A stretch of DNA of 36,344 bases from a virus (taxonomy: Duplodnaviria; Heunggongvirae; Uroviricota; Caudoviricetes): the IMG/VR virus record IMGVR_UViG_2541047905_000018; one strand, given 5' to 3'. Every line of letters starts with the position of its first letter. Positions within the stretch are counted from its first letter, which is position 1. This document shows, one piece after another, positions 449 through 34,114 of the stretch. Under the pieces are notes generated by a model. It worked only from the letters and a program-made list of their open reading frames with translations, was not told the DNA's origin and ran no database searches. The translations under genes were made by a program, and so were the position numbers.

Positions 449-477
449 TTGACACTGGTTATCCACACAGCTAAAAA
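449..477 (+). promoter_or_regulatory. Candidate sigma70 promoter for the dinI-like gene (-35 TTGACA 449..454, 17-bp spacer, -10 TAAAAA 472..477)
   Basis: Consensus -35 hexamer with 17-bp spacing to an A/T-rich -10-like hexamer; predicted start falls in the LexA box. Confidence 0.45.
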
Positions 478-483
478 TAACAC

Positions 484-499
484 CTGTACATAACTACAG
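484..499 (+). promoter_or_regulatory. LexA (SOS) box, CTGT-N8-ACAG
   Basis: CTGTACATAACTACAG lies between the putative -10 and the AGGAGGG Shine-Dalgarno of the dinI-like gene. Confidence 0.6.
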
Positions 500-514
500 T
501 TACAGGAGGGGGTT

Positions 515-763
515 ATGCGTGTTGAGATCTGTATCGCTAAAGAAAAAATCAGCAAAATGCCGAAAGGTTCTGTTCCTGCTCTGCAGCAAGAAATGCTGCG
601 CCGCATAGGTAAGCGATATGACGATGCAGATGTGATCGTTAAATCTGCCAGCAATGATGGACTCACCATTTTAAGAGCCGTCGATAAAGAATCAGCACTG
701 GAGTTCGTACAGGAAACACTACAGGAAGTCTGGCAAACCGCGGACGACTGGTTTATGCAATAA
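515..763 (+). CDS. DinI-family protein (prophage-encoded DinI homologue)
   Basis: 82 aa, [10 protein letters not shown]...[10 protein letters not shown] resembles E. coli DinI (MRIEVTIAK...WESADDWFVSE, recalled); strong SD; LexA box upstream. Confidence 0.8.
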
Positions 764-3589: not shown

Positions 3590-4189
3590 TCAGAACTTAT
3601 AACCGACACCCACGATGAAACTGTTGGTACGCCAGTCACCGCTGCCGGAGCCTTCATAAGCGACATCAATGGCCACGGATTCGGTCGGGTTAAACTGCAC
3701 GCCAGCTCCCCACGCCAGAGACGTGTTGCTGTGGCGACCGTCATCACTTCCGGTCAGCACATCGTGCTTTTTCCCCTTGTTGTCAGTTACGCGGAGATAA
3801 TCCCCGGAGAAAGTCGACACACGGCTGTAAGCCACACCCACCATCGCATACGCGCTGAACCATTCATTCACGCGTACAGACGGCCCCGCCATCACGCTGA
3901 ACCAGCGGTTACGCACGGAATCTTCATGCCAGCGGGTATCGCTGTAGTGCGTTTTTTGCTCATCCTCAGCATTGGCATAACTGAAGGACGTAATCAGCCC
4001 CAGCGCGTCCGTAAACTCATAACGGTATTTCACGTTAATCCCGTTCAGATTATCGCTGCCGGGAGCGTTCGTACGGGCATGAAGATACCCCGCGCTCAGT
4101 GTGGACTGATGTTCAGACGCCCATGCAGGCGCACCGGATACGGACAGACAGATGGCTGCGGACAAAATGGCTGCACATAATTTACGCAT
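3590..4189 (-). CDS. lom: Outer membrane protein Lom (Ail/PagC/Lom family)
   Basis: 199 aa, near-identical to lambda Lom as recalled (MRKL.AAILSAAICL...GVGYKF). Confidence 0.93.
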   Translation of the reverse strand: MRKLCAAILSAAICLSVSGAPAWASEHQSTLSAGYLHARTNAPGSDNLNGINVKYRYEFTDALGLITSFSYANAEDEQKTHYSDTRWHEDSVRNRWFSVMAGPSVRVNEWFSAYAMVGVAYSRVSTFSGDYLRVTDNKGKKHDVLTGSDDGRHSNTSLAWGAGVQFNPTESVAIDVAYEGSGSGDWRTNSFIVGVGYKF

Positions 4190-4256: not shown

Positions 4257-7200
4257 TCAGCTAATCGTGATGCCTGCAGTGGCTTTCTTCATCACAACAA
4301 CCAGCAAATCGCTGATACTTGCTGTGGGATACCAGCCATTTACCCACCATGCTGATACAGAAAACTCCAGCGTCATGTCGCCGCGACCAGCAGGCATATT
4401 AATAACACCACTGTAAACCAGCGTATTATCCAGCGCGGTACGGTTATAAATTTCAGCACCGTTTTTCTTCACTATCAGGCGGCATGACGAATAAGTATCG
4501 CTGTTCTCCTGCTCATGTCTGGCACCGCTGAAAGCCACCGCCGGAATAACAATCTGCCGGTTAAACGGCTGATCGTCATAAACCCTGACGGTAATGGTTC
4601 CTGATGGCCAACGCTTCGGTGCACGGGAGTCACGAGGGAAAGCCTTACCCACTGTTTTAACGAGATCGCCTTCAATCTGGTTTGCAGACAGTTTCCCTCT
4701 GATGACACAGTTCTCGTTAATGGTGACATTATTGAGCGTGCCGGTATTCGCCGTGATGGCTCCACTGATATCCGCATTGCGGGCTGTCAGCCTGCCATCC
4801 GGCGTCAGGGAAAACGTCGGAGGATTGCCGGATGACGTGATGCTCACCGCAAACAGTCGCTTCAGGAACACGTCGTTCATGAACAGCTGATTCCCCTGCG
4901 CCACAAATAACGGCGTGGTGTTACCGTTCTCCGGGGTAATCATCGCAATGCGATCGGCCTGCAGCAGAATGTTACTCAGCGTCTGACCATCAACATCCTC
5001 AATCCCCGCGCCAATCCCGGCCACATAGGGAATACCGTTTTTTGTTTTCTGCACCTTCAGCATATACATGGCATTCAGCTCATTGCGCGTGTCTGACTGA
5101 ACCCGCTGGATTTGCTGTATGGTCACGGCCTGGTCACCCAGCTTTTTATCCGTGGTCGAGGTAATTTCACTCCCTTTTTTATCCACGTACTGGCGGACCT
5201 GTGCTATCTGTCGGGCGTTTTCTGACTGCCCCTGGCTGACAGTCTGTGAGATTTCACTGCTCACCCGGTCCACTTTCTGGCTCACCTGCGCGATGGCCAG
5301 TGTCTGGTCCTCATTCTTTTTCGCAACCAGCTGCGTGAGGCTGTTTTCCGCCTTCCCGATTTTCCGGGTCACTTCTGCGATATCCGTGTCCATCCGCTGA
5401 CGGATATCTTCTTCCAGTTGCGTGACCTCCGTACGCAGCGCTGAAGCATCAATGCGCTCTTTCAGTGCCTGACCCAGAAGCGTCTCATCTATCAGCCCCC
5501 GGAAAATTTCCAGATACCCTTCACCATCATTGCTGGGCTGCCCGCTGGCTTCCACAAAAGCAGATTTTCCCACCAGGTTGACGCTTCGCACGTAAAACCA
5601 GAAATCCGTCCCCGGCTTAATCCGGCTCCCCTGGACAGTCCACTGACTGCCGGTCCCCAGATAACGGGCAGATTTTTCCACCTGTGCTGTGTTCGTGATG
5701 CGTTTTTCTGAGAACCAGAATTCAAACTGTACCGTCGGGTCATACACCGCAAGACGCGGGACCGCCGTTATCTGAAAATACCCCGGCGTCAGCTCAATGG
5801 TGGCGGGTTTTGCAGGTGCGTTAATCCGGAACGATACCGACGCCGGATCGCCCTGCTGTCCCCGGGCATTTACCGCCCGGACCGTCAGCGTGTAACGCCC
5901 CAGCGGCAGGCCGCTGAAACGGTGCTCCGTGTCTGCGGTGATGGCGGTGGTCACCAGTCTGGCATCCGTTCCCTTACCACTGGTCAGGCGCAGACTGAAG
6001 CGCACGCCCTTCACCACCTTCGGCGTGTCCCAGCGCGCCAGCACCTGATATTCCCCGCTGTCTGCGGTGACTTCGGCGGTCAGGTGCTGCACCGCTGGCG
6101 GCGTGACACCATTCACCGTGCCGCTCTGGTCGCCGTCAAAGTGCGCCCCGTTATCCACGATGGCCTCTTTTGCCGGTACATGCTGCACGGCGGTGATGGC
6201 ATACGTACCGTCGTCATTCTCACGGATATTCACACAGCGGAACAGGCGCTGGCGCAGCGTCGGCAGCTTCAGCCCCCACACGCTGTATTCAGCAACACCG
6301 TCAGGAACACGGCTCACTTTTACCTTCACGCCGTCGGTGACGGACTGAACCTCCACGCTGACCGGATTGCCACTTCCGTCAACCAGGCTTATCAGCGTGG
6401 TACCGGAGGATGGCAGCGTGATTTCACGGTCGAGCGTCAGTGTCCGCGTCTGGCTGTTCACCGCCAGCACGCGCCCGCCGGTGCTGATACCCGCATAGTC
6501 ATCATCACAGATTTCAATAACATCGCCCGGTACATGGCGAAGCCCTTCTGCGCCCACGCTGAAGTCCACGGTCTGCGTTTCCAGCAGCTCCGTTTTAATC
6601 AGCCACAGCCCGGCGCGGTGTGCCTGCCCCCGGCTGGTACAGCCAAAGGCATCCATCTTCGTGACGTTACGACCGTAACGGGCAATGGCCTGCGTATCTT
6701 CAACAAGCTCTGTCGCCGTCTCCCAGCCGTTATCCGGGTCAATCCAGTTCACCTCAACGGCATTATGGCGGTCCTTCAGGGCGCTGAAGCTGTAGCGGAA
6801 CGGCGCGCCATCATCCGGCATCACCACATTACTGCGGTTATAGGTCCACACCTTATCTGATGGCCGGTCCTGCACGAACGTCAGCGTCTGCCCGTTCCAT
6901 ACCGGCATACAGCGCATCGCCGAGCAGAAATCACTGAGCACATCCCACGCCTTGCGCTGTGTGGTCAGGTACGCATTACAGGTGATGCGCGGCTCCGTGC
7001 CGCCAAAGCCGTCCGGCACTGACTGGTCGCAGTACTGGCCGATGACATACAGCGCCCATTTGTCCACATCCGCCGCACCAAGACGTTTCCCCATGCCGTA
7101 GCGTGGATGGGTCAGCATATCCCACAGACACCAGGCCATGTTATTGCTGTATGCTGGCTTAAACGTTCCGTCCCAGATACCGCTGTATTGCCGAGTCTGC

Positions 7201-7952
7201 GGGTTATAGTTCGACGGCACCTGCAGAATGCGCCCGCGCAGATGATAATTACGGCTCACCTGCTGGCTGCCGAACTGCTCCGAATCCACCTGTACGCCGA
7301 CCAGTGCCGTGTTCGGGTAGCACTGTTTCACATCGATGATTTCGGTGTATGACGACCAGAGCGTTTTGTTCTGCAGCTGGTCTGTGGTGCTGTCCGGCGT
7401 CATCCTGCGCATCCGGATATTGAACGGACGCGGCGGCAGGTCACCCACCACCACCGATGCCAGATACTGTGAGGTGGTTTTGCCTTTAATGGTGATGTCT
7501 TTTTCCGTCACCCAGCCACCATTACGCTGTATCTGAACCAGCAGGCGGACTTCCGACGGATTCCGGTCCCCCTTTGAGGTGGTTTCCACCAGTGCCTGCA
7601 CACCGAAGGTAAAGCGCAGACGGTCGATGTTTGCCGACGTGATGGTCCGGGTAATCGGCGTGTCGTACTTCACTTCCGTACCCAGCACCGTCTCGGAGCC
7701 GGAGGATTCAAATCCCTCCGGCGGTGTCTGCTCCTGCTCACCGGCCCGGAACACCACCGTGACGCCGGATATATTGGTATTCCCCTCACTGTCCAGCACC
7801 GGCGTACTGTTCAGCAGCACGCTTTTTAATCCATCCACCGGACCTTCAACCGGCCCTTCGCTGATGGCATCAATCACACTCAGCAGCTGCGTGGACTTCA
7901 GGTTGTCCTTCGCTTCGCGCGGGGTATGCCCCTTACTGCTGCCTTTACCCAT
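4257..7952 (-). CDS. J: Host specificity / central tail fibre protein J
   Basis: 1231 aa; N-terminal two thirds near-identical to lambda J from memory ([21 protein letters not shown]...), C-terminal receptor-binding part divergent. Confidence 0.95.
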
Positions 7953-26097: not shown

Positions 26098-26478
26098 TTA
26101 CTTTTTTAGCAGCCAGTCGTCCATCTCCAGTCTTACCCCCAGCACAGACAAACATCCGTCAATAAACCCTTCGGCTATCTGCATCTCAATTCGTATTGCT
26201 TTTTCGCTTTTCTTTCTCGTCCTGGCTATCTGTCTTTTTGATATTCGCAACAAATAATGAGCAATGAGAAGCGAATACTCCTCAGGTTTTTTCTGCTTCA
26301 GACGAGCAAGACAGTTTTCAATGATAAGTCCGTCATCATCGCAGCAGGCCGGACGTGGTTTAGTGGCAGATGGTAAAAGTCCTTTGAATCCGGCAGCGAT
26401 CGGAGAATAGTCCACCCCGGTGTTACCACTTGCAGCCCATGCCCCCCAGCGTTCAAGAACCATCTGAATATCACGCAT
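26098..26478 (-). CDS. Late-gene antiterminator Q (QuuD/phage 82 type)
   Basis: Start MRDIQMVLERWGAWAA resembles E. coli QuuD as recalled; Cys cluster PACCDDDGLIIENC. Confidence 0.8.
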   Translation of the reverse strand: MRDIQMVLERWGAWAASGNTGVDYSPIAAGFKGLLPSATKPRPACCDDDGLIIENCLARLKQKKPEEYSLLIAHYLLRISKRQIARTRKKSEKAIRIEMQIAEGFIDGCLSVLGVRLEMDDWLLKK

Positions 26479-26495
26479 CAACTTTCTCCACAAAA

Positions 26496-27491
26496 TCAGG
26501 CCAGCACGCCAATTGCCAGCGCACGATCGATAAAACGAAATATCAGCTCCAGCTGGGAGCCATACTTCTCTTCAAATGCCACGGTATCCGCATGCAGCTC
26601 GTCGTGATGCTTTCTGCACAAAGGCAACACAAAGAGGTCATGCGCTTTTGTACCCATTCCCCCCTGACCGTGGCCTATCAGGTGGTGGGGATCATCAGCT
26701 GGCTTTCCACAACATGCACACGGCTGTGTCTTAACCCAGCGCGTGTACTTTTCATTAACCCAGCGGCGACGTTTTGGGCGTAACATAAAAGACTCCGGCG
26801 ACTCCGGATCCACTTTCAGCGCCAGCACCTTTTTCGCTTTATCCTGGATAATGCTGGTGGCAGGAACCGAAGGAACAAGGTCACTCTCCCGGGTGACAGA
26901 CGGCACAACAGGCTTCGGTAATCTCAGTGCCTTACGGGCTGCACTTTCCGGTAAGGCATCCGCCAGGTCATTACGAATCAGCCACCAGCACAGTTCCGGC
27001 ATTGTCACAACGTGACTGTCATCAAAACCGAGATCACGGCGCACAACAGATAACACCCAGCGGGCACAGTTATCCGTTGCCATTGATTCCAGCCGTTCCG
27101 TGAACTGATCGCGCAACTGGTTATCGCAGTGCCAGCACAGACGGATTGCGCCCGGAGCGTGCCGCATTGTGGTCATGTTCTCGCTGTGCCAGTCGGAATG
27201 AGGCCACTGGCAGCCTTTTTCACGAAGTAACCAGCTTTCAAGACATTCCACGCCACCAGCACGACGGATCACTGCCTCATTGCGGAACACGGCCCGAACG
27301 GCAGGATCATCCGCCAGCGGTTGTGATGCCGCCGGAACGGCACCACTGGCGAAAGATGAATAACGCTCCGGCTCAGGCTCCAGCAGGACACGCCCCTGCA
27401 TAAACAGGGGCATCAGCTCTGAACCTGGCCTGAACAATACGATCCCCATACGCGGGGCAATTTCAGGGGTCAGTAGTGCTCTCACAGTCAC
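26496..27491 (-). CDS. DUF968-like nin-region protein with C-terminal HNH-like Cys/His motif
   Basis: 331 aa; C-terminus CACCGKPADDPHHLIGHGQGGMGTKAHDLFVLPLCRKHHDELH. Confidence 0.55.
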   Translation of the reverse strand: MTVRALLTPEIAPRMGIVLFRPGSELMPLFMQGRVLLEPEPERYSSFASGAVPAASQPLADDPAVRAVFRNEAVIRRAGGVECLESWLLREKGCQWPHSDWHSENMTTMRHAPGAIRLCWHCDNQLRDQFTERLESMATDNCARWVLSVVRRDLGFDDSHVVTMPELCWWLIRNDLADALPESAARKALRLPKPVVPSVTRESDLVPSVPATSIIQDKAKKVLALKVDPESPESFMLRPKRRRWVNEKYTRWVKTQPCACCGKPADDPHHLIGHGQGGMGTKAHDLFVLPLCRKHHDELHADTVAFEEKYGSQLELIFRFIDRALAIGVLA

Positions 27492-27492
27492 C

Positions 27493-28335
27493 TCAATGAA
27501 CGGTATCGAGCAGCTTTAACAGCTCAGGAAATCGGGATTCGAAGAAATGCGGCTGCGTCTCGCGCGGATTTGCAGGACTGGTGATGTTCTTGCCGAACAT
27601 GCAGCCTTTCGCCGTCAGCGACCAGAATTTTTTGATGTTGTTAATCGCGGTACGGCTGTATCGTTCGCGTTGTTCAACGATCCCCAGCTTCACCATCTGG
27701 TGATATGCCTGATTAGCCGTCAGGCGGATACCATACTGTTTCAGCAGTGCACTCAGCGACAGCGTGGGGCGACTTGAGCCATCAGGCGCGTCAGCAGGAG
27801 CATCAATGGCATAGCGCGGTGCCAGATTCGGTAAGCCAACAGCCTCCTGAAGCTTCTGACAGGCTCCAAGCACTGATGAGTTAGACAGGTTTAATTCCCG
27901 GCGCATAAAGTCCAGCAGGATCACGCCAGCCTGCATCTTGTCAGCAGCCTGCCCGGATAATTTTTCCGGTGTGCTGGTTACCATATCGAAAGTACGGATC
28001 ACCTTCAGATGGAATGACGGGCTGATCCACATTGCATAGGCATACACCAGTTCATTGCAGACATACGTTCCTCCATTCCGCCCTTCTATTTTACTTACTG
28101 GTTTACTACCCAAATTTTGGGTAGTTTCATTGAATGAACCGACACCCAAATTTTGGGTATCGATCAATTCCTGAACCAGCTCAGTAATCTGTTGGCTGGA
28201 AAGAAACTTTCCCGGCTCCTTAGTTCTGGCATTTGCACCAGATGCAACAGCAGCCCGATGCAGATCGTTCAGGCTGTAACGCCCATAAGCATCACGACGA
28301 ACTTCAATACCATCAATGACCATCAGATTATTCAT
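27493..28335 (-). CDS. KilA-N domain protein
   Basis: Start MNNLMVIDGIEVRRDAYGRYSLNDLH with GAGGAG SD; N-terminal KilA-N-like pattern; C-terminal domain unassigned. Confidence 0.6.
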   Translation of the reverse strand: MNNLMVIDGIEVRRDAYGRYSLNDLHRAAVASGANARTKEPGKFLSSQQITELVQELIDTQNLGVGSFNETTQNLGSKPVSKIEGRNGGTYVCNELVYAYAMWISPSFHLKVIRTFDMVTSTPEKLSGQAADKMQAGVILLDFMRRELNLSNSSVLGACQKLQEAVGLPNLAPRYAIDAPADAPDGSSRPTLSLSALLKQYGIRLTANQAYHQMVKLGIVEQRERYSRTAINNIKKFWSLTAKGCMFGKNITSPANPRETQPHFFESRFPELLKLLDTVH

Positions 28336-28354
28336 ACTTCGTTTCTCCTCTTGA

Positions 28355-28744
28355 TCAGGCGGCTGCACCCGCCGTTTTCTCGTACTTACTGATAGTGATC
28401 TCGACCTTCCCTTCCGGGATAACCGGTCCCCACTCCACCAGCATTCTTTTCACCTGGCTGTCGTCTTCCCACACACCCGCGTGGGTCAGGGCGTCAAACA
28501 GCGCCTTGTTATAGTTGTCCAGATCGCGGATCCGGTTATCCGGAGGAAACAACACGATCTCCACTGAAGCAGGTGCCGACGTTGGTTTCGGCAGACGACG
28601 TAACTGCTCAACTATTGCTGTGCACGCCGCACTCTGGAATTTTCGCCCCGCCGCGCTTATCAGGCTCTTACCAGCAAATGCCCCTTTGTTGGGGTGTCGC
28701 CAGTAGGTGTTCACGCTGGGTGGAAAAGGCAGAATCAGCTTCAT
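28355..28744 (-). CDS. rusA: Holliday junction resolvase RusA
   Basis: 129 aa with LPFPPSVNTYWRH and RIRDLDNYNKALFDALTHAGVWEDDSQV, resembling E. coli RusA as recalled. Confidence 0.85.
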   Translation of the reverse strand: MKLILPFPPSVNTYWRHPNKGAFAGKSLISAAGRKFQSAACTAIVEQLRRLPKPTSAPASVEIVLFPPDNRIRDLDNYNKALFDALTHAGVWEDDSQVKRMLVEWGPVIPEGKVEITISKYEKTAGAAA

Positions 28745-29067
28745 ACTTTCAGCCCCCTCTCATGTAACCAGTGGGCTGCACGCAGCCTGGCGTTTTCCTC
28801 ACCAGCAAGCAGTGCGCGGATAATCCCGGCCACCTCGCTGTCGTCGTCCTTCACCGCGGTATGAAGCGTGATGCCCCGGGCCACGCCACGCTTTATCGTG
28901 ATGACGCCTTTTTTCTCCAGTGCGCGAAGATGCTCCACCGCTGCATTCACTGAACGGTATCCCAGCATGGTAGCCACCTCCTGATTGGTTGGCGGGAAGC
29001 CACGTTCTTTCTGGTAAGAAATCAGCATATCCAGCACCTGCTGCTGGCATTGAGTTAACGTCGTCAT
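28741..29067 (-). CDS. LexA N-terminal DNA-binding-domain homologue lacking the S24 peptidase domain
   Basis: MTTLTQCQQQVLDMLISYQKERGFPPTNQEVATMLGYRSVNAAVEHLRALEKKGVI aligns closely with the LexA winged-helix domain as recalled; protein ends after about 108 aa. Confidence 0.7.
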   Translation of the reverse strand: MTTLTQCQQQVLDMLISYQKERGFPPTNQEVATMLGYRSVNAAVEHLRALEKKGVITIKRGVARGITLHTAVKDDDSEVAGIIRALLAGEENARLRAAHWLHERGLKV

Positions 29068-29555
29068 TAAGCCCCCACGTAATTCCCTGACAGATACCAC
29101 TCTTCACCCGATACAGCGCGCTTGCTGCTTTTCCGTAAACACCGCTCACGACGCGCAAGAAAATTGTTTCGCTCTTGCTGGGAGTGGCTTTCACGGAATG
29201 CCGCCATCCACACCGTTGCAGCACGACGGTATAAGCCCCTGGACTCCAGTTCTTCAGCCTGACGGGTCAGGCACAAAATCACCCAGGGGTCGTTAGTGCC
29301 GACATAGAAATTGCTCACAGGTATGGTTTCAAGAACAGGTTGCAGTTTCTCCTCCTGCGATATCTCAGCCTGGTGTGGGAAATGTCTGCGTGTTTTCCCT
29401 TCACAACGGTGAGCCACACGCCCACTCTGACGTAACTTGCTTGCTGACTGCAGTACGCGCTGCCGTGAGTAACCTGCAAAAGCATCCGCAATGTCTCCGG
29501 AAGTACAGCCCGGATGGGCTTCAATGAATTTCTGAACTTCATTCAAAAGACTCAT
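29067..29555 (-). CDS. PerC-like transcriptional regulator (putative)
   Basis: 162 aa; central AEELESRGLYRRAATVWMAAF resembles the PerC/Pch signature as recalled; stop overlaps the start of the LexA-DBD gene. Confidence 0.45.
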   Translation of the reverse strand: MSLLNEVQKFIEAHPGCTSGDIADAFAGYSRQRVLQSASKLRQSGRVAHRCEGKTRRHFPHQAEISQEEKLQPVLETIPVSNFYVGTNDPWVILCLTRQAEELESRGLYRRAATVWMAAFRESHSQQERNNFLARRERCLRKSSKRAVSGEEWYLSGNYVGA

Positions 29556-29557
29556 GA

Positions 29558-30499
29558 TCACCCCCTGAATCCTTCCGGGATCTGGCTGTAGTCCACGTTG
29601 TCGTAACTGGCTTTGAAGTACGGGTCCTCACGTTTTTCTGTGTGCGTGCTGACGGACGGCGATAAGCGCAGGGAAAGCTCATCCCATTTTTCCCGCAACT
29701 TCGACGGGCTGAGCACGTTACGGCACCAGAACGGATCACGGCTGACGCGGCTGTACATCTCGCAGATTTGTTTGTGAGTACGACCATCCTGCACACACAT
29801 CAGGCGAATTTCGTTTGCCCATGCTGTCCAGTTCGGTTCTTTGGGACGAACCACCTCGCCGTCACATTCGGCGGCCTGCTCGTACAGGGCGATGATTTTT
29901 TTCCAGAGCCACTGTGCGCAGGTCAAATCATCCTGCGTTCCCCACTGGCGCTTTTTAGGGCTGAATACAACCGCATCAGGATGGCGAGTTAAAAAATCCT
30001 GTTCAGCCGTCTGCGTGTCCGGTTGCAAAGCGTCCGGACGAGAAGGTTTTTTATCTGACGGATCATGTTTTGATTTTACTGACGGATCCCCGCCAGATTC
30101 TGACGGGTGAAAACACGCTTTTTTGCCAGATTTCGACGCATCAAATTTTGACGGGTCAGATTTTGATGCGTCAGATTTTGACGGGTCAGAATCTGACAGT
30201 TGAGAAAATGCCGCAGCCTGAAGCTTCGCAACGTTAAGCTGATAAACATTCGACGCATTGCGGTTACCCTGGCGACGCGCCTTACGCGTTAACCAGCCTT
30301 CTGCTTCCAGCCGTGCGATAGCCGTTCTGACGGTACTCATCCCCGCGCCAATCTGGCGGGCAATGGTTTCAATTGATGGCCAGCACACACCCTCGTCATT
30401 ACTGAAATCAGCCAGACGGGCCATAATTGCCACACTGGATAATTTCATGCCTGACGCTGCGCAACCATCCCATACATAGCCGGTTAATTTGGTGCTCAC
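29558..30499 (-). CDS. Replication initiator (lambda O-like N-terminal HTH) containing origin iterons
   Basis: 313 aa with N-terminal helix-turn-helix; central SD(P/A)SKSD repeat encoded by tandem iterons. Confidence 0.7.
   Translation of the reverse strand: MSTKLTGYVWDGCAASGMKLSSVAIMARLADFSNDEGVCWPSIETIARQIGAGMSTVRTAIARLEAEGWLTRKARRQGNRNASNVYQLNVAKLQAAAFSQLSDSDPSKSDASKSDPSKFDASKSGKKACFHPSESGGDPSVKSKHDPSDKKPSRPDALQPDTQTAEQDFLTRHPDAVVFSPKKRQWGTQDDLTCAQWLWKKIIALYEQAAECDGEVVRPKEPNWTAWANEIRLMCVQDGRTHKQICEMYSRVSRDPFWCRNVLSPSKLREKWDELSLRLSPSVSTHTEKREDPYFKASYDNVDYSQIPEGFRG
30066..30203. repeat. Origin-type iteron array: about seven tandem 15-18 bp repeats (GATTTTGACGGGTCA consensus)
   Basis: Three near-perfect tandem copies at 30144..30188 flanked by degenerate copies, inside the O-like gene. 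Confidence 0.7.
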
Positions 30500-32520: not shown

Positions 32521-32617
32521 ATGCCCTCCAAACTAAGTTTTATTAGATGTTAATTATCAATCTATCTTAGGTCAATAAAAACTAAGATTACTTAGTAATT
32601 AAAGAAATGGTGCTCCT
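32521..32617. promoter_or_regulatory. Right operator/divergent promoter region (PR/PRM) between cro and cI
   Basis: Perfect palindrome ACTAAGATTACTTAGT (32581..32596), CTTAG-N11-CTAAG and CTAAG-N5-TTAG in a 97-bp AT-rich intergenic region. Confidence 0.65.
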
Positions 32618-33244
32618 ATGGAAACGGTTGGTCAGCGTATAAAAGCTCTGAGAAGAGTTACCAGAACGTCCCAGAAAGAATTGGGTAAATTTTGTGGAGT
32701 AAGTGACGTTGCTGTGGGGTACTGGGAGAAAGACATCAATGTCCCTGGTGGGGAAGCACTTTCAAAATTAGCGAAGTTCTTCAATACGTCAATAGATTAC
32801 ATTCTTTATGGTGCGGAGTTTGAAGGCAAACTCGTCACAAACATGCGCAGAGTTCCTGTAATCTCGTGGGTTCAGGCTGGGCAGTTTACTGAGTGCAGGA
32901 CAGCAGAAGTGTTTAGTGAAGTAGACAAGTGGGTAGATACATCATTAAAGATTGGTGATAACTCATTTGCATTGGAGGTTAAAGGCGACTCCATGACTAA
33001 CCCTAACGGCCTCCCAACAATACCAGAAGGCGCAACAGTGATTGTAGATCCTGATGCAGAACCCCGGCATGGAAAAATAGTCATCGCTAGACTTGATGGA
33101 ACAAACGAAGCCACAGTAAAAAAATTAGTTATCGATGGCCCTCAAAAGTTTTTAGTGCCATTAAATCCCCGGTACCCCAACATCCCGATCAATGGTAATT
33201 GCCTCATCATTGGTGTAGTCAAAGGAGTTCAATACGAACTCTAG
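32618..33244 (+). CDS. cI: CI-type prophage repressor (N-terminal XRE HTH plus C-terminal LexA-like S24 peptidase)
   Basis: 208 aa; HTH near N-terminus; C-terminal GDSM...K autocleavage-type domain (VKGDSMTNPNG...ATVKKL). Confidence 0.88.
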   Translation: METVGQRIKALRRVTRTSQKELGKFCGVSDVAVGYWEKDINVPGGEALSKLAKFFNTSIDYILYGAEFEGKLVTNMRRVPVISWVQAGQFTECRTAEVFSEVDKWVDTSLKIGDNSFALEVKGDSMTNPNGLPTIPEGATVIVDPDAEPRHGKIVIARLDGTNEATVKKLVIDGPQKFLVPLNPRYPNIPINGNCLIIGVVKGVQYEL

Positions 33245-33477: not shown

Positions 33478-33771
33478 ATGGTCATATTCTGTGCTTACGT
33501 TCATCCTAATGGATTTTTTATCAGCACCAACCAACAAGACGAATTCTGGATTCTACTTAGTAAGCAGGTCGGATGGGGACGATTCTGTCTAATCCGACCA
33601 GAATCAGAATTTACAGAGAATGGAGGGCTTTTTGAATTACGTGAAATACGTCCGGCAGATGGTCAAGCCCCTGACCAAGTAATCGAATCGTCAGCTGTTT
33701 TATGGCGTCGGCAGGAAGCGTTCGAAGCTGAGAGAGTAATTTCTTCTTATCTTCAGTCGTGGCAGAAGTAG
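33478..33771 (+). CDS. Hypothetical protein B2 (97 aa), paralogue of B1, co-directional with cI
   Basis: AGAGGG SD; about 44% identity to B1 over the conserved core (FW..LS...GWG.F.LIRP..EF...GGLFEL). Confidence 0.65.
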   Translation: MVIFCAYVHPNGFFISTNQQDEFWILLSKQVGWGRFCLIRPESEFTENGGLFELREIRPADGQAPDQVIESSAVLWRRQEAFEAERVISSYLQSWQK

Positions 33772-34114
33772 AACTATTGATGATACGTTCAAGTTCACAG
33801 AGAGTCTCATCATGCAATCTTATTGTCATAATCCCAAGAATAGCTTTAAGACCTCCATCATCACGAATGAAATCAATTCCATCTTTAGTAATTCTTAATT
33901 CAGGAATATTTATATTTATGCCATCCAAGTAATAATCAAGAGCATTCTTAATCAAGCCATGTTCTTCGAGATAAATTAAGTTCGAAATTAGGACATTATC
34001 ATCTCCAAATGCGTCACGAACAGACTGCAACGCATCATCAGAAATTTCATAAGGATGAGCATCATACAGTATTTGTAACAACTGCCTTTGTGCACTTCTA
34101 TCAAATTTGTCCAT
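33611..34114 (-). CDS. Hypothetical protein A2 (167 aa), paralogue of A1, convergent with B2
   Basis: Conserved with A1 (ITKDGIDFIRDDGGLKAIL, LRTLPADAIKQLT); 3' end overlaps B2 by about 160 bp on the opposite strand. Confidence 0.7.
   Translation of the reverse strand: MDKFDRSAQRQLLQILYDAHPYEISDDALQSVRDAFGDDNVLISNLIYLEEHGLIKNALDYYLDGININIPELRITKDGIDFIRDDGGLKAILGIMTIRLHDETLCELERIINSSTSATTEDKKKLLSQLRTLPADAIKQLTIRLLGQGLDHLPDVFHVIQKALHSL

Follow-up and report, generated by a model that had tools for sequence, protein, structure and literature searches.

A phage-encoded LexA-type DNA-binding protein without the autocleavage domain in the nin region of a lambdoid prophage

Why should a prophage that carries its own cleavable repressor also encode the DNA-binding domain of LexA, and which sites would such a protein occupy once the host LexA is being destroyed? 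The question is raised by a 36,344-nucleotide stretch of virus DNA (Caudoviricetes; IMG/VR record IMGVR_UViG_2541047905_000018), here called the window, which represents a lambdoid prophage. Its minus strand carries a gene for a protein of 108 amino acids (aa), named mini-LexA in this work. The original prediction, made from the letters alone, had described it as a LexA DNA-binding domain (DBD) that lacks the autocleavage domain. The answer favoured here, which is held tentatively and given rather less than an even chance, is that mini-LexA is a RecA-insensitive binder of SOS-box-like sites and a brake on SOS transcription in lytic development. The gene and the parts of its product are as follows.

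28741..29067, minus strand: mini-LexA gene, 108 aa plus stop (open reading frame (ORF) list, Pfam LexA_DNA_bind, phrog_362, RefSeq)
28864..29067, minus strand: LexA-type winged helix-turn-helix (wHTH), codons 1-68, with helices 6-22, 28-35 and 40-52 and wing strands 56-58 and 66-68
28912..28953, minus strand: recognition helix SVNAAVEHLRALEK, codons 39-52 (alignment, LexA contact lists)
28744..28863, minus strand: tail, codons 69-108, with a flexible linker at 69-74 and helices 75-88 and 93-103 (AlphaFold2 (AF2) model)

The predicted coordinates are exact. The frame runs on the minus strand from an ATG at 29067..29065 to a TGA at 28743..28741 and comprises 108 codons; an alternative GTG start extends the ORF to 29100, and homologues begin at the MTTL/MTKL position. 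The Pfam family LexA_DNA_bind is matched end to end (E 2.9e-19, model positions 1-65 of 65). The alignment with residues 1-68 of Escherichia coli LexA is gapless at 51% identity, so that LexA residue numbering transfers directly. The absence of the autocleavage domain has been borne out as well: a Pfam scan of the 108-aa protein found no S24 peptidase domain (PF00717), and the NCBIfam equivalog model for lexA, TIGR00498, reaches 67.4 bits, well below its cut-off of 110.95, with a match at profile positions 1-91 only. Mini-LexA is a LexA-type winged-helix domain without the S24 peptidase domain or the conserved Ala-Gly cleavage site. PHROG 362, a profile of 106 positions annotated as 'transcriptional repressor', spans residues 1-108 of the protein (profile 1-106 of 106, E 7e-58). 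The domain call is already present in public annotation, where the product at the equivalent place of an E. coli locus with 98.8% identity is listed in RefSeq as WP_000210176.1, 'LexA family protein/transcriptional regulator', and the idea of a truncated LexA in a phage has one studied precedent. Two other identities were rejected. PsrA and PsrB, regulators of prophages in enterohaemorrhagic E. coli, are AraC-type and unrelated, and membership in a defence system was discarded because the PADLOC models give only a marginal match at the wHTH level (CARF3, E 3.6e-4, 18 bits); the same models gave no matches to the neighbours of mini-LexA.

The original prediction also stated that the protein stops before the S24 domain. 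That domain is indeed absent, but the protein is not a simple truncation, since residues 69-108 form a conserved helical module. In the AF2 model, the tail is a helical hairpin with predicted local distance difference test (pLDDT) values of 83-85, and the linker at 69-74 has low confidence. The tail is conserved in relatives of 40-60% identity from Salmonella, Citrobacter, Cronobacter, Atlantibacter, Kosakonia, Enterobacter, Klebsiella, and Raoultella, and is kept across at least nine genera, down to 40% identity. Within it, A97 is invariant and L101 near-invariant among relatives. In the alignment, the first helix of the tail falls opposite the LexA hinge and the Ala84-Gly85 region (LLAGEE versus VAAGEP), which suggests that mini-LexA may descend from a lexA gene cut just past the cleavage site. 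The residues A88-G89 of the E. coli-type protein align with A84-G85 of LexA and sit in a predicted helix. An interpretation of this pair as a cleavage site or pseudo-substrate was rejected, because it is not conserved: other family members have AN, TD, ER, NG, AE, ND, DD, or NN instead. The hairpin is proposed to act as a dimerisation or stabilising module.

Mini-LexA is functional and under strong purifying selection. The selection sample comprised 80 IMG/VR loci and the window; all 81 alleles are intact, and the pooled ratio of nonsynonymous to synonymous polymorphism (pN/pS) is 0.054, with values of 0.01 for the winged helix and 0.12 for the tail. Of 5426 complete E. coli genomes, 2233 (41%) carry the gene, some of them in up to four copies; nearly all copies are at least 95% identical at the nucleotide level, and thousands of E. 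coli entries match the protein at 94-100% identity. A further 50 phage records contain the gene, among them those of Shigella phage SfIV, mEp460, and converting phages of the Stx2c and Stx2k types. When genome collections were scanned with the family alignment, most matches were genuine host lexA genes and about five loci were useful, because the search pattern came from the N-terminus.

The DNA sequence that such a protein might read can be approached through the contacts of LexA. According to the summary given in a review, the main contacts with CTGT in the LexA-DNA crystal structure are made by S39, N41, A42, and E45 (PMC11442139), and an older list based on nuclear magnetic resonance, as reproduced in two further papers, adds E44 (PMC3091678, PMC13416735). 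Inspection of the recognition helix had been proposed as a check in the original prediction. The helix turned out to be LexA-like, with S39, N41, A42, and E45 all kept and E44 changed to V. Family statistics were drawn from 101 tail-bearing relatives, which are about 40% identical to one another. Among these, S39 and N41 are invariant (100%), A42 is kept in 98%, and position 45 carries an acidic residue (E or D) in 87%; in the wing, R64-G65-I66 do not vary across the family. The hosts of mini-LexA are taken to share the SOS box CTGT-N8-ACAG. The core reading residues thus rank with the most constant positions of a family that has diverged to 40% identity, and this argues for a LexA-like half-site common to all hosts. 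That this target is identical with the host SOS box is plausible and is put no higher, because the family lacks E44 and R28 and some of its subfamilies differ at position 45.

Boxes of the LexA type are present in the window itself, upstream of a gene whose family acts in the SOS system.

453..501, plus strand: tandem SOS boxes CACTGGTTATCCACACAGCT (453-472) and ACCTGTACATAACTACAGTT (482-501) (pattern search; position weight matrix (PWM) scores 15.7 and 17.0)
515..763, plus strand: dinI-like gene, headed by the tandem boxes (Pfam DinI, E 6.7e-17)

A box at 484..499 before the dinI-like gene had been predicted, and an exact CTGT-N8-ACAG is found there, within the second of the two tandem boxes. 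The boxes are 29 bp apart from start to start. The first, CACTGGTTATCCACACAGCT, covers a perfect TTGACA -35 element at 449-454, and the second, ACCTGTACATAACTACAGTT, lies downstream of that element. The matrix, derived from a set of 22 E. coli boxes, is approximate; its training boxes score 12.9-27.7, and both scores fall within this range of known E. coli boxes. These two boxes are the only ones in the window and lie 28 kb from mini-LexA. The region 453..501 is a candidate in-cis target of the protein. The same tandem layout upstream of a DinI-like gene was observed in phage phiSTEC1575-Stx2k (L011, 45311 and 45339).

A closer arrangement occurs in a sister subfamily with proteins of 130-135 aa, of which the 130-aa Klebsiella form matches the same PHROG 362 profile. 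Its members lie in a cassette with the order SOS box, first gene, orfX (phrog_1813, 77-85 aa), mini-LexA, orf67 (phrog_1212, 67 aa), in some cases RusA, and DUF968. The first gene encodes DinI in Klebsiella and Raoultella and a RecA paralogue of 361-369 aa in K. michiganensis and one metagenome contig; it is absent in Enterobacter. A strong box (PWM 20.8-27.7) is found 40-150 bp upstream of the first gene in all five distinct contexts. The loci are the following.

Klebsiella: L003-L005, about 5385-7624
Raoultella: L175/L176
K. michiganensis: L172/L173, 2536-5654
L174, 340-3455
Enterobacter: L008, 4560-6998

Homologues of orfX and orf67 were searched for in the window and none were found. The cassette brings three components of the SOS system together within one phage module. 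Judged from gene content, the recurrent pairing with DinI, RecA, and SOS boxes ties the mini-LexA family to SOS biology.

Further boxes were seen in other carriers. Boxes are located in the immunity region, and after the antiterminator gene Q, in about a quarter each of the 80 IMG/VR loci. In SfIV, a strong SOS box lies between a decayed rusA and a KilA-N gene, about 440 bp downstream of mini-LexA. There (L010, 32198-32756) rusA is a pseudogene with a premature stop, followed at 32639 by the box TACTGTATTTATGAACAGTA, some 100 bp ahead of gp44, a gene with a KilA-N domain; this suggests an antirepressor-like gene under LexA control. A DNA methyltransferase gene between Q and the lysis genes has another strong box, CACTGTTTATTTTTACAGTA, across its 5' end (E. 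coli ECSC054, L002, about 4096-4115; mEp460, L001, 609-628). About a quarter of the 80 carrier loci have such a box 3.5-5 kb downstream of mini-LexA.

The time at which mini-LexA would be made can be estimated from its surroundings.

29067..29561, minus strand: PerC/YfdN-like regulator, upstream neighbour (Pfam PerC, E 8.9e-10; phrog_1324)
29065..29069, minus strand: TAATG junction of the PerC-like stop and the mini-LexA start, 1-nt overlap (sequence)
28355..28744, minus strand: RusA Holliday-junction resolvase, downstream neighbour (Pfam RusA, E 7.4e-15)
28741..28744, minus strand: ATGA junction of the mini-LexA stop and the rusA start, 4-nt overlap (sequence)
26098..30499, minus strand: nin block with O-like HTH_36 replication gene, PerC, mini-LexA, RusA, KilA-N, DUF968, and Q antiterminator (Pfam)
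32547..32575, minus strand: PR-like promoter upstream of cro (consensus scan)
32618..33244, plus strand: the prophage's own cleavable CI-type repressor (Peptidase_S24, E 1.6e-27; HTH_3, E 3.5e-9)

The coupling to the PerC-like gene that had been predicted agrees with the 1-nt TAATG overlap, an arrangement that translational coupling would predict; 6-10 nt upstream of the start junction there is a GGGGG run. The ATGA overlap with rusA is the same in Cronobacter, Salmonella, and E. coli phage loci. The CI-type repressor, which combines HTH_3 and Peptidase_S24, is separate from mini-LexA, and the prophage also has Cro, a CII-like gene, Rha/Ash, and the O-like HTH_36 replication gene with iterons. 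The family is located in the nin region in the window, E. coli, Shigella phage SfIV, the Stx2k phage, Cronobacter, Salmonella, Enterobacter, and Klebsiella. In E. coli, Shigella, Cronobacter, and Salmonella, the gene order is replication gene, PerC, optional methyltransferases, mini-LexA, RusA, an antirepressor-like gene, DUF968, and Q. A block of 4 kb (about 26400-30450) is kept at 85% or higher nucleotide identity in 60-84 of 84 carrier loci, and the E. coli-type block that carries mini-LexA contains nearly no non-coding DNA. The consensus scan found the PR-like site as the only sigma-70-like site upstream of the operon, and none on the minus strand between 29100 and 31300. Because this site before cro is the only one upstream of a packed operon, mini-LexA would be a delayed-early product, made after CI inactivation or on infection and not in the resting lysogen.

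The favoured mechanism starts from this timing. Mini-LexA would be made from PR after CI has been inactivated or when the phage infects, and the delayed-early position of the operon would mean that its synthesis follows the loss of CI and LexA set off by the SOS response. The tail hairpin might supply the dimerisation or stability that LexA draws from its C-terminal domain, and the dimer would read CTGT-type half-sites through the helix with S39, N41, A42, and E45 and through the RGI wing. It would occupy SOS-box-like operators while the host LexA is destroyed; candidate operators are those of the host SOS regulon, the tandem dinI boxes of the prophage, and LexA-controlled genes of co-resident elements. 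Activated RecA (RecA*) would be unable to remove mini-LexA, because the domain with the catalytic Ser and Lys is missing. The ClpXP route should also spare it, as it has no terminal ...VAA degron like the one exposed on cleaved LexA. The net effect would be a phage-imposed brake or reset on SOS-controlled transcription.

Comparison with known proteins shows where this mechanism would differ from them. Compared with the host LexA of E. coli (TIGR00498, PDB 1jhh/3jso), mini-LexA is without the S24 peptidase and dimerisation domain, Ser119 and Lys156, and the conserved Ala-Gly site; E44 and R28 are replaced, and a helical hairpin is added. It is phage-encoded in a delayed-early operon, and the E. 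coli type has no autoregulatory boxes of its own. The N-terminal fragment of LexA (residues 1-84), which likewise consists of the DBD and lacks the C-terminal domain, still binds operators weakly and cooperatively. Engineered fusions of LexA(1-87) with a dimerisation domain such as a zipper, as used in two-hybrid systems, are non-cleavable and efficient SOS-box repressors. They follow the same design, a LexA DBD with a small helical module, and are artificial with a heterologous dimeriser, whereas the module of mini-LexA is natural and its dimerising role is proposed. The LexA fragment is described as unstable, since cleavage exposes a ClpX signal (Neher et al. 2003, as cited in PMC11442139); mini-LexA, which ends in ...RGLKV and has the conserved hairpin, should in contrast be stable and may dimerise. 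Among mobile-element modulators of the SOS response, GIL01 gp7, DinI, plasmid PsiB, and Listeria phage AriS act on the RecA or LexA protein, whereas mini-LexA would occupy DNA sites; the proposed outcome, an SOS response damped or reshaped by a mobile element, is the one ascribed to them (PMC4551915, PMC9043618, PMC9926225). Proteins of 140-350 aa with two LexA-DBD stretches in tandem were also observed (P0129, P0130, P0146, P0150-P0153, and others). They may be single-chain 'pseudo-dimers', another way of doing without the C-terminal domain.

Several points weigh against a brake on SOS transcription. Position 44 is never Glu in the 101 relatives, where V, A, L, N, or T is found, while eight of nine full-length LexAs in the same searches keep E44. 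R28, conserved in the genuine LexAs retrieved, is lost across the family. Positions 40 and 43-46 vary between subfamilies, and the L44-L45 of the Klebsiella type is hard to reconcile with CTGT reading. The loss of E44 and R28 and the Klebsiella L44-L45 argue that specificity or affinity may not be simply those of LexA. None of the 80 E. coli-type IMG/VR loci has an SOS box within 2.9 kb of mini-LexA, so that the cis association of the long subfamily is not general. The box scores depend on the approximate matrix of 22 boxes, and dimerisation through the tail is inferred. A full-text literature search found no study of the enterobacterial mini-LexA family and brought up only gp6 of GIL01, the one characterised phage protein found that consists of a LexA DBD alone, which reads a non-LexA site and acts as an activator (PMC6182141). 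An apparent exception to the residue pattern is a translation from Scandinavium lactucae (L040, 6001-6300), in which both R28 and E44 are kept (PPNRQELA ... SPNAAEDH). It is tblastn-derived, resembles the mini-LexA tail, and is not confirmed as an ORF of family length. As the others lose both residues, R28 and E44 may form a functional pair in LexA, although this is only a hint.

These points lead to the alternative that survives best, namely that mini-LexA is a phage-specific regulator which uses the LexA fold with an operator of its own and exerts delayed-early control of a non-SOS promoter. By analogy with gp6 this may be possible, and it is considered somewhat unlikely. The precedent comes from the Bacillus tectivirus GIL01, whose gp6 has been termed a 'truncated LexA homologue'. 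Like mini-LexA, gp6 is a LexA DBD that a phage encodes and that is devoid of the catalytic domain. It appears early in lytic development, binds GaCACAn nTGTGaC and not the LexA box of the host, and acts as activator of the late promoter (PMC6182141). The family-wide loss of E44 and R28 would fit an operator of this kind, and so would the variation in the recognition helix, where the pairs VE, AE, ND, TD, FE, LL, and LT occur despite one presumed host box. In addition, proteins of 65-150 aa consisting of a LexA DBD only are common in unrelated phages (BFVD). The likeness to gp6 is nevertheless limited. That protein has 66 aa, no tail, and a different recognition helix (K38), and a BLASTP comparison with mini-LexA gave no alignment at E <= 100; given this lack of detectable similarity, it is an independent capture from a Gram-positive LexA and thus an analogy only. 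Late control also differs, as the window phage uses a Q antiterminator where GIL01 relies on activation of its late promoter by gp6. A diversifying recognition helix would not be expected to hold S39, N41, and A42 (near-)invariant and position 45 mostly acidic. No conserved non-SOS palindrome stands beside the gene in any subfamily: a linked palindromic operator was searched for in the window and in the Klebsiella and Enterobacter loci, and nothing shared was found. Mini-LexA has no promoter region of its own to autoregulate, and the E. coli-type gene travels in the compact block described above.

A second alternative, regarded as improbable, is that mini-LexA is a DNA-binding accessory of phage recombination or replication, for example with the coupled RusA or a DUF968/HNH protein. 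Gene neighbourhood speaks for it: RusA comes next in E. coli, Salmonella, and Cronobacter, each time with the ATGA overlap, and after one intervening gene in Enterobacter, the long subfamily adjoins RecA paralogues, and DUF968 is always one to three genes downstream. These associations are weakened by the absence of RusA from the Klebsiella and Raoultella cassettes and by the viable phage SfIV, in which rusA has decayed and mini-LexA is still intact. The nin gene order is conserved for many unrelated functions, and the contact residues conserved here are those of a sequence-specific repressor.

Very little weight is given to mixed dimers with host LexA, which the original prediction had suggested and which would be dominant-negative or stabilising. 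The two proteins share only the DBD, although contacts between LexA DBDs on DNA mediated by the wing have been mentioned (PMC8565304). The tail has no counterpart in folded LexA, and mini-LexA would be expressed while LexA is being destroyed. The dimer interface of LexA is its C-terminal domain. Because this domain is missing from mini-LexA, the suggested heterodimer has no structural basis. The weakest explanation, a functionless, decaying remnant of a captured lexA, could appeal to the end of the protein shortly past the region that aligns with the cleavage site and has a negligible probability, and this pseudogene reading was rejected on the selection and conservation data, that is, the uniformly intact alleles, the low pN/pS, the tail shared between genera, and the many E. 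coli genomes with up to four copies.

The reading of mini-LexA as an SOS-box binder can be extended to the family as a whole. Mini-LexAs might be widespread, RecA-proof substitute SOS repressors with which lambdoid phages re-silence the SOS regulon during the destruction of host LexA; this extension is regarded as doubtful. If it were true, about 40% of E. coli genomes and many other Enterobacteriaceae would carry such repressors, and the silenced genes would include LexA-controlled toxins, antirepressors of competitor prophages, and the phage's own dinI. The prophages of Klebsiella, Raoultella, and Enterobacter would then hold SOS-box-driven feedback cassettes with phage DinI or RecA, and a phage-borne module would rewire the timing of the SOS response and the way in which it is shut off.

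SOS induction is the driving force behind the induction of prophages, the release of Shiga toxin, mutagenesis, and antibiotic tolerance, and the carriers of mini-LexA include Stx2c and Stx2k converting phages as well as Shigella serotype-converting phages. An uncleavable look-alike of LexA, if produced in every induced cell, could change the duration and strength of SOS gene expression, decide which co-resident prophage wins after DNA damage, and alter the output of stx phages. Mini-LexA would also be a natural minimal SOS-box repressor useful to synthetic biology. If it has its own operator instead, a hitherto unknown regulatory step would be defined in a very common E. coli prophage module. 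The new contributions of the analysis are the recognition of the conserved tail, the strong purifying selection and high prevalence of the gene, the family-wide pattern at the DNA-reading positions, and the SOS-box/DinI/RecA/mini-LexA cassettes of the sister subfamily.

Other features were observed in the window and related loci. Within the KilA-N gene, twin 15-bp palindromes ACCCAAATTTTGGGT are found at 28108-28122 and 28144-28158, 36 bp apart, where 0.22 would be expected by chance. They fall in the sole stretch of the nin block that varies between carrier loci and may serve as a binding site for a protein or mark a recombination seam. Inverted repeats that resemble iterons, GTCAGATTTTGAC with its variants, are located at 30135-30197 within the O-like HTH_36 gene and are probably the phage origin. 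Beside the immunity region, an ORF of 167 aa on the minus strand (33611-34114) has no Pfam or PADLOC match and is overlapped by an ORF on the plus strand (33478-33771); this flank is the usual place for accessory or exclusion genes of prophages. Directly after Q, cargo genes were seen in two related loci, a pertussis-toxin-S1-like ADP-ribosyltransferase in Salmonella (L009, 8373-9098) and a ParD/ParE-like pair in Cronobacter (L006, 8566-9112).

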